Positions 4,189 to 19,704 of a stretch of DNA of 37,220 nucleotides are shown here, in pieces. The notes beneath the pieces were generated by a model. The model was not told the DNA's origin and searched no databases. It was given only the letters and a program-made list of their open reading frames with translations. A program made the position numbers and the translations under genes. The DNA lies in the IMG/VR virus record IMGVR_UViG_2718218102_000005, positions 1 to 37,220 of that record. One strand, written 5' to 3'. The stretch is from a virus. Taxonomy: Duplodnaviria > Heunggongvirae > Uroviricota > Caudoviricetes. Each line of letters starts with the position of its first letter. Positions within the stretch are counted from its first letter, which is position 1.

Positions 4189-5267
4189 CAGAACGGGTCC
4201 TCCTGTACTCTGGCTTTTTTCTTTTTCCGCGCGCCGGGGGCTTCGGGTTCAGGCAGATAAGCATCAGGCGGGCCGACACGGATTTCCGTCAGGGTGCCGT
4301 TCTGGTCCTGAGTAAACGTGACTTCCGAAACAAGCAGTTCGGTATTGTCGAAACCACAGACCGGATCAAAGACAATCACCCGCTGGTTGGGCTGCCACAG
4401 CGTACCGTTACCCTGTCGCCAGCCCTGCACCACATAGGTGGTTTCATCCGTCCGCGCCGCCCGTTGTCTGGCTTCAAAGTCCGCACGGGCAATACAGCCT
4501 GCCCCCGTAGCCTGCCCTGTCTGCCTGATATACATCGGACGGTAACGGGCAATAAATGCGTCCTCTGTGCGGGCCCGCAGCGCGGTGGTGGTGGCCTCAC
4601 CGAAATCATCGTCGTTTCCGGCACGCTGCCCCGCCACCTGGTAAACAGAAAACCGCTCCCGGATACTCTTCTCCGTATCGCAGGAAAGGATGTTTTCCCC
4701 GAGTACCAGCGCAGTATGTGCCCGCGTTGAGCCAATACCGCCAATCACCAGCCTGCCGTGCGGGTCGTCGTAAGCCAGTGCCTGCTGCTGACCGAGTATT
4801 TTGTTGATTACCTCAATCACCGTTTCACCGTGATCAGGCTGAACATCAGGAATAACACCCGACGGCGCACCGCTGTTCACCACCTCAATGCCGAAAGGCG
4901 CAGCAAGCGCCTGCGCAATCTGCACCAGCGAGCGTCCGTTAAACTGTGTCGGTTCGGCTGCACAGTCAATCAGGTCAGCGGTCAGACTGCGTCCGGCAAT
5001 ACCGGTGCTGACCGAACGGGCATCGTAACGAACGGGCGTCGCCTCCACCCAGCCGGTGATCACCAGCTCATCACCAATCAGCACTTCCACTTTTGAACCG
5101 TTTTTAATGCGCGGCTGAAGCGTGGTGATACCCTCATCTCCCGGCCACTGGCGGGTGATCTCCACACTGAAATCCCGCGCCAGCCGTTCAATACCGGCAC
5201 CGATGCGCACCGATGTCCAGCCATTCCACTCCCGGCCATTTACCCGTAGCGTGACATTGTCGTTCAT
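4188..5267 (-). CDS. Tail/baseplate hub protein, late control D-like (Mu gp44-like)
   Basis: 359-aa ORF directly downstream of the circularisation protein N-like gene. Confidence 0.6.
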   Translation of the reverse strand: MNDNVTLRVNGREWNGWTSVRIGAGIERLARDFSVEITRQWPGDEGITTLQPRIKNGSKVEVLIGDELVITGWVEATPVRYDARSVSTGIAGRSLTADLIDCAAEPTQFNGRSLVQIAQALAAPFGIEVVNSGAPSGVIPDVQPDHGETVIEVINKILGQQQALAYDDPHGRLVIGGIGSTRAHTALVLGENILSCDTEKSIRERFSVYQVAGQRAGNDDDFGEATTTALRARTEDAFIARYRPMYIRQTGQATGAGCIARADFEARQRAARTDETTYVVQGWRQGNGTLWQPNQRVIVFDPVCGFDNTELLVSEVTFTQDQNGTLTEIRVGPPDAYLPEPEAPGARKKKKARVQEDPF

Positions 5268-6592
5268 TGCACTGGCACCTTCAGAGGGATCACCGGCACA
5301 AAGCCGGGATGCGTAATGGCATTACGCCGGATAATGTCCGCGTCACGCGCCGCGTTATCAAACCAGGTCGCCGCCAGCACCAGCGCGGGTAAAACCTCAT
5401 CCGGTGTGCGCTGAATGATCCGTGCAGACTGTTCAAGGCGCGTGTTGATATCCGCATTCAGATCTGCTTTCACCCGGCGCAGCGCCAGAAACAGCGCATC
5501 ACTGGTTGTACGGGACAACTCCTTATCAATTGCCGTATTCAGTGTGTCGCGAATGTCAGTCAGTTCTTCCCACGTCGGCAGGTCAACCGTGTTTTTCACC
5601 GCCGGTGCATTGTTCAGTGCCGGATGCGTGACGGAAGGCCAGCCAGTGCTCTGCGCAGGTGTTGTTGCCTGCCCCACTGCGGAATTCTGCATCACCGCGG
5701 AAGTTGTTGGCGCAGGCAATCGGGTGACGGCATACGCCGCTTCGCTGATTGCGGTCGTACGAAGGGTGCTGGCAACCACGTTACGCTGCTGCGTCGCCGT
5801 GGCGGTGGTTTTACTGTCCGTTTTCCAGACGCCGCGCGGTTGCAGATCGCTGCCGAGGCTGACACCGGAAAGCGTTTTGATCATGGTGACCAGGTCGCTG
5901 GCGTTACCATAAAGGCGTTTCCCGGTACGCCACATTTTCTGCACCTGCTCAACGAAATTTTTGCCTGACGATGGCGGCGGCAGAAGTACCGAGATATCCC
6001 CCTGCAACAGCCTGGCGGCATCCGATACGGCAGAATCCACCACTTTCATCGCATCAGAAACATACCCCAGCATTATGCTGGCATTACCGATAACGTCGTT
6101 CTGCACGAAATCCGCCACACCATCGATACTGAAACCGCTGAAGCTGTCACTGATGCAGTCATCCAGTGCAGAACAGGATGACATCAGCGTCTGCGCCGTC
6201 GCCGCACCTGATGTGGGGTAAGAGAGTTCTCCTGCTTCGACAAACTTCAGGTCAAAGCGGACAATACGCCCTTCACTTTTCGATGTGCTGACCCGAACTT
6301 CCCCGTCAACACAGACTTTCAGCTCACCATATGTCGGGTGGACAAGCGTGCCGGGACCGGGTTTATTCAGCGCGTCAATCAGGCGATCGCGCTGGTCAAA
6401 GCAGTCATCTCCCACCACATAAGCTGTGATGGACGGGCGGAAAGTGACTTTTCCCAGATCTTCGGTATAGGGCTTGTCGCGGTTCGGATATTCGTGTGTT
6501 TCCACACGGCGACCGGTTCCCGCACTTTCTTCTTCAACCTTAAACGGTACGCCGCGAAATGACGCATCCTGAAGCCTGTCTTTCCACGTCAT
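5264..6592 (-). CDS. DNA circularisation protein N-like (Mu gp43-like tail protein)
   Basis: 442-aa ORF, MTWKDRLQDASFRGVPFKVEEES... N-terminus; sits between tape measure and baseplate hub as in Mu-like tails. Confidence 0.65.
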   Translation of the reverse strand: MTWKDRLQDASFRGVPFKVEEESAGTGRRVETHEYPNRDKPYTEDLGKVTFRPSITAYVVGDDCFDQRDRLIDALNKPGPGTLVHPTYGELKVCVDGEVRVSTSKSEGRIVRFDLKFVEAGELSYPTSGAATAQTLMSSCSALDDCISDSFSGFSIDGVADFVQNDVIGNASIMLGYVSDAMKVVDSAVSDAARLLQGDISVLLPPPSSGKNFVEQVQKMWRTGKRLYGNASDLVTMIKTLSGVSLGSDLQPRGVWKTDSKTTATATQQRNVVASTLRTTAISEAAYAVTRLPAPTTSAVMQNSAVGQATTPAQSTGWPSVTHPALNNAPAVKNTVDLPTWEELTDIRDTLNTAIDKELSRTTSDALFLALRRVKADLNADINTRLEQSARIIQRTPDEVLPALVLAATWFDNAARDADIIRRNAITHPGFVPVIPLKVPVQ

Positions 6593-6607
6593 ATAAACTC
6601 CGGATAC

Positions 6608-6663
6608 AAAAAACCCGCCAAATCTGCTTTGTCAGTTATTTACATCGCAGAAGATGTGGCGGG
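6608..6663 (-). terminator. Rho-independent terminator (minus-strand sense) downstream of the tail moron
   Basis: Inverted repeat cccgcca (6614-6620) / tggcggg (6657-6663) with an inner ctgc/gcag pair; A-run 6608-6613 on the plus strand gives a U-run on the minus-strand transcript. Confidence 0.45.
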
Positions 6664-6682
6664 AACCTAATATTTTTAATTA

Positions 6683-7177
6683 CTATCTGAGTTGAACATC
6701 AATGGAATAAACATTACCACTCTTTATAAATTTAGAGTCCGTCCTTTCATCAAAGGATTCAAATGACTGTACCTTTGAAAACTTTTTCATTTTATTTTCA
6801 AAAATACTTTCATTAACACCAGTTAAATACTTGAATGCTCTACCAGCAAGGACCTCATTACTTAAAGTTTGTGTGTTTTTATTGTCTTTGAAAAACCAAA
6901 TAATAACCTTTTGTGGACATGATGGATTATAAACAGATATATAAAACTGCGGCTCATATTTTTCATCAGCATCATCGCCAAGCATTTCTTCAAAAGACAA
7001 TTCTCTCCTGAATTCATATTGACGCTTAGTTATTCCTTCATCCTTTACTATCTCTTGCTTAACTGGTGCAATACCTATAGAAGAGATTAATTCTGACTCA
7101 TTAAAGCTGAACTTACACTCTTCCGCTGCCAAGTTAAAAGATAAAAGTGCAGATATAAAAAACACAAAGATACGCAT
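6683..7177 (-). CDS. AT-rich moron: small secreted protein of unknown function
   Basis: ORF track 6683-7195; preferred start is the ATG at 7177 (MRIFVFFISALLSFNLAAEE..., SD-like gaaggg 6 nt upstream), giving a typical signal peptide with an A-A/E cleavage site; two Cys in the mature part; visibly AT-rich against GC-rich tail genes. Confidence 0.6.
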   Translation of the reverse strand: MRIFVFFISALLSFNLAAEECKFSFNESELISSIGIAPVKQEIVKDEGITKRQYEFRRELSFEEMLGDDADEKYEPQFYISVYNPSCPQKVIIWFFKDNKNTQTLSNEVLAGRAFKYLTGVNESIFENKMKKFSKVQSFESFDERTDSKFIKSGNVYSIDVQLR

Positions 7178-7276
7178 AATCATCCCTTCAATCATTTGTA
7201 AGGAGTGATTATATTAACTGCTTAAAGTTGAAAACCCAAATTATGCCAGACAAAAACACATTAATCATTTTGTACA

Positions 7277-9109
7277 CTACCTGAACCGCGTATAGCCAAC
7301 ATCATGGCTGACATCAATACCGCTGGATCGCGTTTCCATAACCCGCATACCTGGTGGCATATTCACAAAAGATACCTTGATCTCACCATCAACTTTTGGC
7401 GCAGAAGCTTTGTTTATCATGAAGGGATTCGGGCCTGTGGCACCGGAGGCGTTGTTTGACTGCGCCGGATCCACCGCCGGGTAAGGTGTGTATCCCCGCG
7501 CCGGTATTCCCGTCCCATAAGCATCATAGGCACCTGCGCCCCACTGCGCAGAGTTAATGGCATCGACCGTGTCACCGGAACTGTCAGTAAACCACTCAAT
7601 AATTGGCTTCAGCTTGTCCCACATATCCTGAAACCACTTAACAACCGGTCCCCAGTTATTGATCACCATCCCCAGCGGCGACCAGGCAAAAACTTTCTTG
7701 AGGAGTTCCCAGCCAACCTCAAAATAAGGACCAATGGTTTCCCAGAGCTTCTTGAAATAAGGTCCAACAACATCCCAGTTAGTGATAATTAATCCCGCAG
7801 CCAGGGCAATCGCCGTCGCAATCATGCCAATCGGCGTCATCGACATGATCCTGCTGACGATACTGATGGCACTGCCCACGCCCATCAATCCCAGTTTCAG
7901 AATCGCAAGACCGGCAGCAAGCCCGACGACGCCGCGAATAACCCGGGGATTTTGATCCGCAAACTTCGTGAATTTCTCCCCCAACTCCCCCAGCCATTGC
8001 GTGATATTTTTAGCGTCACCAGAAAATGCGCCGCCAATAGCTGCAAGGCCGTTAGTTGCGGTCCCCGTCATTGCCTCCCACAGGTTGGACAACGTACCAA
8101 GCTGTGCCTGAACACGTTTATTCAGGCTGGCCTGTTTATTCATCTTCTGCTGGATCTGATCGTAACCATCCTTTCCTTTATCGATCAGCGCATTGACCAC
8201 CTGAATGGTTTCGGCATCATCACCAAATATTGCCTTAAGTACATTAGTTCGCTTAACGTCAGTCAGTTTTCGCAACTTTGCCAGTTGCTTAAACATGTTA
8301 TCAAGACCGCCAAAACTTCCTTTGCCGTCAGTAAAATCGAGCTGTACCCCGAGTTTCTGGCGGGCCATGACTTTATTGACGTCCCTGATTTTCTTAACAC
8401 TTAATCCGGACTGGATAACTTTTCGCAGGGCATTACCTGCCGCCTCCCCGTTCATCCCCATCTGATCCATCATGACGCTGATGGGGGCAAGGCTCTGTGC
8501 AGCCTGAAGACCGTCCTTGTTCACCATCTTCAGAACAGAGCTGGTTTTAGTGAAGAAGGACAACATGTTGGTATCGTCAACGCCCAGATAAAACGCCTTC
8601 TGGATAGTGTCGAACAGCCCCATCATGTCTTCTGACGCCGTTCCGGTAGCATCCTGCATCTTTGCAGCAAACTCAGCAGCCGCTTCCGGTGTTTTTTTCA
8701 GTTGTACCGCAAGATAAGCTGTCGCTTTACCCACACCACCCAGAATGTTTTCTGCCGGGATCCCCTGACGCACCAGCATCTGCATCATGTTCTGGAAATC
8801 AGCCGTTGTACCGGGTAGCTGGTTACCCAGGCCAATAGCCAGTTTATTGATGTCCTGAAAGCTCTTTCCAACCTCGCCATTCGCATCCATCATGGCGACT
8901 TTCAGCCCGGTGGCGGCGTTTTCCTGATCGGCATAAGATTTCAGGGAAAGCGTCAGACCCGCTGCCAGTCCGCCACCAAGCGCCAGCCCACCCTGTGACG
9001 CTTCTTCCGCCTGGCGTTTAAATCCCCGGATTTTCTTTTGCATTTTCGACAGCGCGGGAGAAAGCCTGTCGACACCGGTGATCAACGCCTTAAGCTCAAA
9101 TTCAGCCAT
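7277..9109 (-). CDS. Tail tape measure protein
   Basis: 610-aa ORF downstream of the frameshifted chaperone pair; Ala/Gly/Leu-rich helical N-terminus, hydrophobic middle and W-rich C-terminal part as in tape measure proteins. Confidence 0.8.
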   Translation of the reverse strand: MAEFELKALITGVDRLSPALSKMQKKIRGFKRQAEEASQGGLALGGGLAAGLTLSLKSYADQENAATGLKVAMMDANGEVGKSFQDINKLAIGLGNQLPGTTADFQNMMQMLVRQGIPAENILGGVGKATAYLAVQLKKTPEAAAEFAAKMQDATGTASEDMMGLFDTIQKAFYLGVDDTNMLSFFTKTSSVLKMVNKDGLQAAQSLAPISVMMDQMGMNGEAAGNALRKVIQSGLSVKKIRDVNKVMARQKLGVQLDFTDGKGSFGGLDNMFKQLAKLRKLTDVKRTNVLKAIFGDDAETIQVVNALIDKGKDGYDQIQQKMNKQASLNKRVQAQLGTLSNLWEAMTGTATNGLAAIGGAFSGDAKNITQWLGELGEKFTKFADQNPRVIRGVVGLAAGLAILKLGLMGVGSAISIVSRIMSMTPIGMIATAIALAAGLIITNWDVVGPYFKKLWETIGPYFEVGWELLKKVFAWSPLGMVINNWGPVVKWFQDMWDKLKPIIEWFTDSSGDTVDAINSAQWGAGAYDAYGTGIPARGYTPYPAVDPAQSNNASGATGPNPFMINKASAPKVDGEIKVSFVNMPPGMRVMETRSSGIDVSHDVGYTRFR

Positions 9110-19383: not shown

Positions 19384-19704
19384 CTAAATCAGATCACCAA
19401 TGTATTTTGCACTAATTGAAATTTGCATCTGAGGCATTCCGACCACAGATCCATTTAACAGGTAATCACGTCCTCGTTCCTGCAAAGAAAGACTCAATTC
19501 AAAGTTCTTTACCCCAGGGAAAACCGAGGTGACATTTAAATCATGCTGCGATACGCGCAGAATAAGTTGGCTACCGTCAATTTTTCCCTGATACGTAAAA
19601 CCAAAATCTCCGCCGTTTACTGCATTGTTTTTGACAACTACGGTACCATTACCAAAATCACGTTGATTGCTTCTGAAAACAACAAAATAGATACCATCTT
19701 TCAT
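19384..19704 (-). CDS. AT-rich moron: hypothetical 106-aa protein
   Basis: ORF MKDGIYFVVFRSNQRDFGNGTVVVKNN... between the spanin genes and HNH; visibly lower GC than flanks; own terminator downstream; no family recognised. Confidence 0.5.
   Translation of the reverse strand: MKDGIYFVVFRSNQRDFGNGTVVVKNNAVNGGDFGFTYQGKIDGSQLILRVSQHDLNVTSVFPGVKNFELSLSLQERGRDYLLNGSVVGMPQMQISISAKYIGDLI

Follow-up and report, generated by a model that had tools for sequence, protein, structure and literature searches.

We analyzed a gene that lies between the tape-measure gene and the baseplate hub gene in the late tail operon of a prophage, contained in a 37,220-nucleotide stretch of DNA (IMG/VR virus record IMGVR_UViG_2718218102_000005; this whole stretch is referred to as the window). 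The tape-measure/hub junction of the SfV-like myoviruses of Enterobacterales is a long-standing slot for accessory genes, and the gene in question, hereafter the cargo gene, is one of its alleles. The cargo gene (6683–7177, stop codon included, minus strand) encodes a 164-aa precursor and is a real, selectively constrained gene, and the sequence of its product suggests that the protein is probably exported to the periplasm. By analogy with known systems we propose, at low confidence, that the product is a periplasmic superinfection exclusion factor acting at the envelope.

An accessory-gene slot in the tail operon

In Escherichia coli JNE170426, tail genes approximately 95% identical to those of the window are only 60 nt apart. 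Against the empty-site relative, homology was interrupted by a variable segment at approximately 6614–7285, which is about 670 bp long in the window and about 50 bp long in the relative. The junction is also empty in the isolated phages SfV, SfI, SfII, and SfIV, and it was empty in 26 of the 49 two-flank matches sampled from E. coli relatives with approximately 95% identical flanks. Among 5426 complete E. coli genomes, 1093 (about 20%) carried the flanks and 83 carried the cargo gene. The empty junctions of the four phages and of the relatives indicate that the cargo gene is dispensable for tail assembly.

Four alternative cargos were found at the junction: a 125-aa bPH_1 protein (approximately 24 genomes), which occupies the same site in Edwardsiella phage EPP-1 too, a 176-aa protein with an N-terminal membrane anchor (approximately 174 genomes), a 225-aa lipoprotein (approximately 54 genomes), and an OB-fold (PF12869) protein with an N-terminal transmembrane (TM) helix, which is encoded on the opposite strand (approximately 70 genomes); these numbers count genomes with the cargo DNA, and the slot position was checked for example loci only. 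In sister prophages the cargo loci were located at 857–1234 (L007), 855–1385 (L008), 847–1524 (L009), 904–1350 (L010), and 1256–1633 (L018). The alternative cargos are all AT-rich (34–42% GC), and three of the four have N-terminal membrane-targeting sequences. The 164-aa family was unrelated to the 176-aa and 225-aa cargos in hhalign comparisons. The OB-fold cargo matches PHROG 8545 (E 1.5e-49), which is labeled "superinfection exclusion Sie-like", a label that is an annotation and not an assay result; its opposite-strand orientation means that this cargo must be transcribed from a promoter of its own. The tape-measure stop codon forms the upstream boundary of the slot, and a fixed hairpin and T-run, which abuts the ribosome binding site of the hub gene, forms the downstream one. 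An association of empty slots with the carriage of gtr genes was considered and dropped, since the empty-slot prophage of UTI89 has no gtr genes.

The interval between the tape-measure and hub genes of the window is 684 nt long, has a GC content of 31–34%, and contains a single open reading frame (ORF). The GC content was 0.31–0.34 over 6601–7200, the lowest in the 37-kb window, compared with 0.53–0.62 in the adjoining tail genes; the values for the individual genes were 32% (cargo), 52% (tape measure), and 56% (hub), and those at third codon positions (GC3) were 0.27, 0.57, and 0.61, respectively. The mechanical ORF list gives 6683–7195 on the minus strand, whereas the homologues and RefSeq (WP_001219113.1) favor the ATG at 7177, which yields the 164-aa protein beginning MRIFVFF. 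A Shine-Dalgarno (SD) sequence of its own, AAGGGA (7188–7183), is located 5 nt 5′ of this ATG. The protein matches PHROG 8976, a family of unknown function, with an E value of 1.5e-104. The ratio of nonsynonymous to synonymous substitution rates (dN/dS) against phage SKA5 was 0.20 for the cargo gene, 0.12 for the tape-measure gene, and 0.04 for the hub gene, and the value of 0.20 indicates that the cargo is a real gene. Furthermore, the alignment of nine close members has 49 invariant columns, and the exact protein is present on 419 contigs.

Searches of 5.8 billion and 1.84 billion proteins returned only about 15 clusters of homologues, all from Enterobacterales (Escherichia, Shigella, Salmonella, Kluyvera, Atlantibacter, Yersinia, and Pantoea). 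An exhaustive profile search of the 1.84 billion representatives gave only 13 proteins, a second, word-indexed search with a broader profile gave nothing further, and a tblastn search of 50,697 phage records with the cargo protein gave matches in SKA5 and AH07 only; the scan of the genome collection for homologues used a narrower family alignment. A 1766-aa protein (P0024) was rejected as a homologue, being a eukaryote-type repeat protein that scored by 13 summed weak repeats. All of the more than 50 phage-borne homologues examined sit between the tape-measure and DNA_circ_N genes: those of L003–L006, AH07, SKA5, and L019–L024, and those of 45 of 45 loci from IMG/VR, Kluyvera, and Atlantibacter, one of which ends at a contig edge before the hub side.

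The identity of the cargo protein to its homologues decreased in the series 95, 60, 40, 36, and 27%, and the corresponding values were 98, 79, 62, 62, and 59% for the tape-measure protein and 100, 77, 56, 59, and 45% for the hub protein. Spearman coefficients relating the cargo identity to that of the flanks were 0.66 (tape measure) and 0.77 (hub), the pairs being non-independent. Residence in a single slot and divergence in step with the flanking genes indicate that the cargo gene is not a recent foreign insert. The homologues have GC contents of 31–40%, and their GC3 is below that of the flanks in every case. In five of the loci (the window, L003, L014, L019, and L022) GC3 was 0.27–0.42 for the cargo gene and 0.46–0.61 for the flanks, down to 27% identity. 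The persistence of low GC across this divergence indicates that the AT-richness is maintained and is not a sign of recent arrival; silencing of the H-NS type and control of expression are possible reasons for it.

The initial annotation had described this region as an AT-rich insert between the tape-measure and circularization-protein genes with classic moron architecture. The insert is present at the position described, with the GC content given above, and it is deviant DNA absent from close relatives. With regard to the moron definition of Juhala and Hendrix, as summarized in PMC3594210, the locus has extra DNA between genes that are adjacent in relatives (24–60 nt apart there versus 684 nt here), a deviant composition (GC 0.32 versus 0.52 and 0.56), and a terminator, but horizontal spread among unrelated phages is not seen: the phage copies are all in one slot of one tail module. 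The insert is also not a recent foreign arrival, as it co-diverges with its flanks from 95% to 27% identity. The moron interpretation is thus largely right, with its points on terminator, promoter, and age amended.

The only copy found outside the slot is a chromosomal paralogue (P0019, 156 aa, approximately 33% identity) at 6001–6471 of L025, also present in L026, which lies 60 nt past a pertactin-type autotransporter gene in an Enterobacterales genome. P0019 has no signal peptide and also lacks the first of the two cysteines described below (C21). No counterpart of P0019 was found in E. coli, where only the adjoining autotransporter was matched.

In regards to the flanks, the upstream neighbor in the late tail operon is the tape-measure gene (7277–9109, minus strand), identified by PF10145 (E 1.3e-26), PHROG tape-measure families, and the RefSeq annotation in UPEC_U013, and the downstream neighbor is the baseplate hub or "DNA circularization" (Mu gp43-like) gene (5264–6592, minus strand), identified by PF07157 (DNA_circ_N; E 2.9e-34) and PHROG 184. 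The window is a prophage that is 100% identical over the compared stretches to the E. coli UPEC_U013 prophage beside dusA. Its lambdoid early genes, which include a Q-type antiterminator, its HK97-type head genes, and the genes of its Mu-like contractile tail are all encoded on the minus strand, and it belongs to the group of SfV, SfI, SfII, and SfIV (SfV-like temperate myoviruses).

The predicted periplasmic product

The N-terminus of the cargo protein has a predicted Sec/signal peptidase I signal peptide, MRIFVFFISALLSFNLAA, which comprises codons 1–18 (7124–7177, minus strand) with Arg2, a hydrophobic core, and a −1 Ala that is invariant among the nine closest homologues. The sequence MR-IFVFFISALLSF-NLAA|EE has the layout of n-, h-, and c-regions, and cleavage is predicted after Ala18, before E19; the core IFVFFISALLSF has a mean Kyte-Doolittle value of 2.67 over 11 residues. 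The call was rule-based, requiring a charged n-region, an h-region of 10–15 residues, and small residues at −3 and −1, and it included a check for a lipobox. The N-terminus conforms to these rules, and the features are kept in five lineages that share 27–60% identity, which bears out the signal peptide proposed in the initial annotation. Because the Cys is at +3, there is no lipobox and the cargo is not a lipoprotein.

The mature part contains two cysteines only, C21 and C87, as noted at the outset. The same five lineages have exactly two conserved cysteines in the mature part, and across 13 divergent members C87 was invariant and C21 nearly so. The mature protein probably contains a C21–C87 disulfide. 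The AlphaFold2 (AF2) model, which was built from a nine-sequence alignment, had a predicted local distance difference test (pLDDT) score of 86 and a predicted template modeling (pTM) score of 0.78, and shows an alpha+beta fold with seven strands and approximately six helices after the signal peptide. The structure prediction suggested in the initial annotation gave a confident model, and no solved fold matched it. One structure in BFVD is a distant relative, the name of which is unreliable.

The terminator and the spacer

An intrinsic-terminator-like hairpin follows the cargo gene at 6606–6663 on the minus strand, directly 5′ of the SD of the hub gene. It reads 5′-CCCGCCA...UGGCGGG-UUUUUUGU, in which the 7-bp GC stem CCCGCCA/UGGCGGG (6663–6614) encloses a structured loop of approximately 36 nt and is followed by U6GU (6613–6606). 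The end of the T-run is only 5 nt from the GGAG that serves as the hub SD (6601–6598). The free energy of the fold was −22.3 kcal/mol, with z = −1.9. A simple terminator scanner gave no call here because the loop is unusually long and partly self-paired, and an Rfam scan of the region returned nothing.

Equivalent elements were found without the cargo gene. The empty sites and every co-oriented cassette have a GC hairpin and T6–7 directly 5′ of the hub SD; a CCCAC-TTCG-GTGGG hairpin is common to the empty sites and the bPH cassette, and an ACCCGC-TTCG-GCGGGT(-T7) hairpin recurs in the lipoprotein cassette and in every other member of the 164-aa family. Moreover, a rho-independent terminator is annotated at the empty junction in the GenBank record of SfII. 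The presence of the hairpin at empty junctions and after other cargos indicates that the terminator is part of the slot and not private to the cargo gene. The terminator that had been attributed to the cargo gene itself thus exists as a minus-strand hairpin and U-run after the gene, but it is shared with empty sites and other cassettes. A terminator in the middle of the operon could insulate the baseplate genes, stabilize the 3′ end of the mRNA made ahead of it, or be left over from past exchanges of cargo.

The hub-proximal hairpin and T-run were present in all SfV-like phages examined, with or without cargo (for example, the window at 6598–6663, L002 at 2542–2601, and L016 at 903–941), and the hub-proximal ends of L007, L008, and L009 likewise bear them. 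At 6621–6656 of the window, the CCCGC/GCGGG stem of the family is kept and the 4-nt TTCG loop is replaced by the partly self-paired loop of approximately 36 nt, an expansion of about 30 nt that is retained in all alleles of 95–100% identity. The lipoprotein cassette of L009 has a second hairpin and T-run (CCCG-CTTAAACA-CGGG-TTTT) at approximately 1525–1605, right past the tape-measure stop codon, so that the lipoprotein cargo is flanked by terminators on both sides.

On the other side of the cargo gene, the tape-measure stop codon and the cargo ATG are separated by an AT-rich spacer of 99 nt (7178–7276, minus strand), which was read directly from the sequence and is conserved in the 95% alleles. 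The spacer contains a perfect TATAAT (7213–7208) and a weak −35-like TTTTCA (7234–7229) at a spacing of 15 nt, with no TG extension; no convincing promoter private to the cargo gene, a defining element of the moron architecture, was found. A 54% homologue is preceded by TTGACA-16-AATATT in the appropriate position, and the 176-aa cargo by TTGTAA-16-TAGAAT plus a TG extension; in AT-rich DNA, promoter-like matches of this kind are not enriched relative to shuffles. The cargo ATG of Pantoea phage AH07, the metagenomic locus L019, and Yersinia prophages is 15–16 nt past the tape-measure stop codon or overlaps it, and has its own SD. Such distances mean that expression in these members must come from the late operon.

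Possible functions of the cargo protein

The exclusion function that we propose would proceed as follows. The precursor would pass through Sec and lose its signal peptide after Ala18, and the mature protein, a soluble alpha+beta protein of about 146 aa, would fold in the periplasm with the C21–C87 disulfide. Since the cargo gene points in the direction of the late operon, it would be expressed during lytic growth by Q-antiterminated late read-through; late expression is described as Q-dependent in the SfIV paper. In the E. coli lineage, the acquired AT-rich spacer with its −10 element may add transcription in the lysogen, and the terminator would keep the lysogen transcript out of the baseplate genes. 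The periplasmic protein would then hinder incoming phages in tail-tip penetration or in the delivery of their DNA. The support for this proposal is that the same slot holds mostly envelope proteins, one of which matches the Sie-like annotation of PHROG 8545, together with the precedents of HK97 gp15 and P1 Sim described below.

Several observations weigh against an exclusion function. The argument from neighboring cargo is guilt by position. No homology to a described exclusion or defense family, or to any other, was detected, PHROG 8976 being the sole PHROG match, and searches of Pfam, NCBIfam, PADLOC, and PDB sequences with the cargo protein or its profile gave no meaningful match; the initial annotation likewise recognized no family, and the PHROG family is of unknown function. 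Expression in the prophage state is questioned by the promoter scanner, which gave 0 sites in the spacer compared with 3.2 expected in shuffles, and by the deep-branching members, which have no space for a lysogen promoter. Finally, a second SfV-like junction was commoner in genomes with the cargo gene (20 of 60 listed carriers had two or three tape-measure/hub junctions) than in an even sample of non-carriers (4 of 55), a comparison confounded by strain relatedness or clonality and by the order of acquisition. The frequent second junction gives no sign that the cargo gene excludes its own kind. The accession WP_001219113.1 was in no paper found in the literature search. The moron described in the SfIV paper was rejected as a counterpart because it is at a different locus, and the Tab and Tai tail-assembly blockers were rejected because they are cytoplasmic and located elsewhere.

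A more specific form of the exclusion proposal appears improbable to us. The junction would be a dedicated slot for the exchange of exclusion cassettes with a conserved terminator, and the 164-aa proteins would represent a novel type of soluble exclusion factor in the periplasm, with an unseen fold. They would have co-evolved with the tape measure and hub of their own phage because they recognize these ejected tail-tip proteins in the periplasm and block DNA delivery by cognate and related tails.

Two explanations unrelated to function at the envelope are contradicted by the data. The unusual composition and the unassigned family would suit a spurious or decaying ORF in AT-rich junk DNA, but this reading, which we regard as having almost no probability, is effectively refuted by the conservation data: dN/dS is low, the protein is conserved over its full length down to 27% identity together with its motifs and cysteines, the AF2 model is confident, and the identical protein recurs on hundreds of contigs. 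A tail structural or assembly protein would explain why different genera share the position in the tail module and why the protein diverges in step with the adjoining tail genes. Such a role is nevertheless excluded for practical purposes and is scarcely more probable than a spurious ORF, since the gene is missing from four isolated infectious relatives and about half of the sampled E. coli relatives, and a cleavable Sec signal peptide would take the protein out of the cytoplasm, the site of tail assembly. Moreover, no structural family or fold matched the cargo protein; a clear match to a conserved tail structural protein, one of the findings named in advance as refuting the moron interpretation, was likewise lacking, and none of the other findings so named was made.

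Other periplasmic functions have to be weighed with exclusion, and we consider each of them less probable than it. A lysogenic-conversion factor unrelated to phages, acting like Bor or SodC in envelope robustness, stress or serum resistance, or animal colonization, would agree with the predicted periplasmic location and with the carriers, which include uropathogenic E. coli (UPEC) and many poultry and avian pathogenic E. coli (APEC) isolates, and morons with such roles are well documented (PMC3594210). We nevertheless think it unlikely. The family is bound to one slot of one tail module, its deep-branching members have no room for a lysogen promoter, and the hosts come from diverse niches (Pantoea from a tree leaf, Yersinia including Y. 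ruckeri, Kluyvera, and Atlantibacter), which argues against a virulence role specific to a host niche; the serum-resistance gene orf10 of the APEC prophage phiv142-3 was rejected as a counterpart, as it differs from the cargo gene and the arms of its knock-out primers are not in the window. Equally doubtful is a late periplasmic helper of the phage's own lytic cycle, which might, like T5 Llp, stop particles, whether progeny or superinfecting, from ejecting into a cell that is already infected or is lysing, or might tune lysis. The co-orientation with the late operon and the copies of AH07, L019, and Yersinia placed 15–16 nt past the tape-measure stop codon are in its favor, and divergence in step with the tail genes suits a function tied to the phage's own particle, but SfV, SfI, SfII, SfIV, and many prophages with approximately 95% identical tails lack the cargo gene or carry an unrelated one, and the E. 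coli-type alleles gained the 99-nt spacer with −10 elements, which suggests additional, non-late expression. Less probable still is a periplasmic immunity protein or inhibitor that would benefit the lysogen against a lysozyme, a colicin, or a toxin of a type VI secretion system (T6SS) or of contact-dependent inhibition (CDI). A small, AT-rich orphan that is predicted to be periplasmic and to contain a disulfide has the general profile of such inhibitors, whereas no likeness in fold or sequence to the solved periplasmic lysozyme inhibitors (Ivy, PliC/MliC, and PliG) was detected.

The exclusion proposal can be compared with known systems. HK97 gp15, the first moron to be described, is encoded beside the tape-measure gene and acts in superinfection exclusion at the envelope, with a specificity that maps to the tail (PMC3594210). 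The cargo gene resembles it in being an extra gene of the late tail operon by the tape measure, absent in close relatives and of deviant GC content, with a terminator after it and a predicted envelope product. In contrast, gp15 is small, resides in the inner membrane, is related to host YebO, and has a prophage promoter that was demonstrated; the cargo product is predicted to be a soluble periplasmic protein of 146 aa, is encoded after the tape-measure gene rather than before it, and has homologues only in this phage slot, save for the one chromosomal copy. The PHROG 8545 (PF12869, tRNA_anti-like) cargo is found in the same slot in sister E. coli prophages, is AT-rich, and is envelope-targeted; however, it is unrelated in sequence and fold class, has an N-terminal TM anchor and is not secreted, and is encoded on the opposite strand with its own promoter region and a bidirectional GC hairpin. 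Protein Sim of P1, also a temperate myovirus, is Sec-processed and periplasmic and blocks infection after adsorption, which is the mechanism that we propose by analogy for the cargo protein; it has no detectable sequence similarity to the cargo protein and a different genomic location. Sp and Imm of T4 are exclusion proteins analogous in the function proposed here. Bor and Lom of lambda and SodC of Gifsy-2 are, like the cargo gene, encoded by prophage accessory genes and are periplasmic or outer-membrane products, but homologues of theirs are found in bacteria or other phages, and their host-interaction phenotypes are known. Whereas Bor is a lipoprotein and Lom is an outer-membrane protein, the cargo protein has neither a lipobox nor a beta-barrel nor known relatives.

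Elsewhere in the window, a gene annotated in UPEC_U013 as a "GrlR family regulatory protein" is located at approximately 19384–19704, flanked by the HNH endonuclease gene and the lysis genes, where the GC content dips locally to 0.42–0.45, and may be another moron. A DinI-like gene (62–310; position by offset from the UPEC_U013 annotation) is found at the integrase end, at the dusA attachment site. This end has no gtr serotype-conversion genes, unlike that of the Shigella SfV-type phages.

Morons of tail operons are already known, and the architecture of this locus is unsurprising in itself. What the analysis adds is that one junction in a prophage type very common in E. coli, Shigella, and Salmonella holds at least five unrelated AT-rich cargo families, four of which have N-terminal export or membrane-anchor sequences. 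These families are a compact set of candidates for exclusion or envelope-modifying proteins. The member in the window is an orphan predicted to be secreted, with a confident predicted structure and no known fold relative, and its maintained AT-richness counters the usual reading of AT-rich genes as recently acquired. If the cargo protein is a periplasmic exclusion factor, it would be a new family among the few of this kind, such as P1 Sim and T4 Sp.

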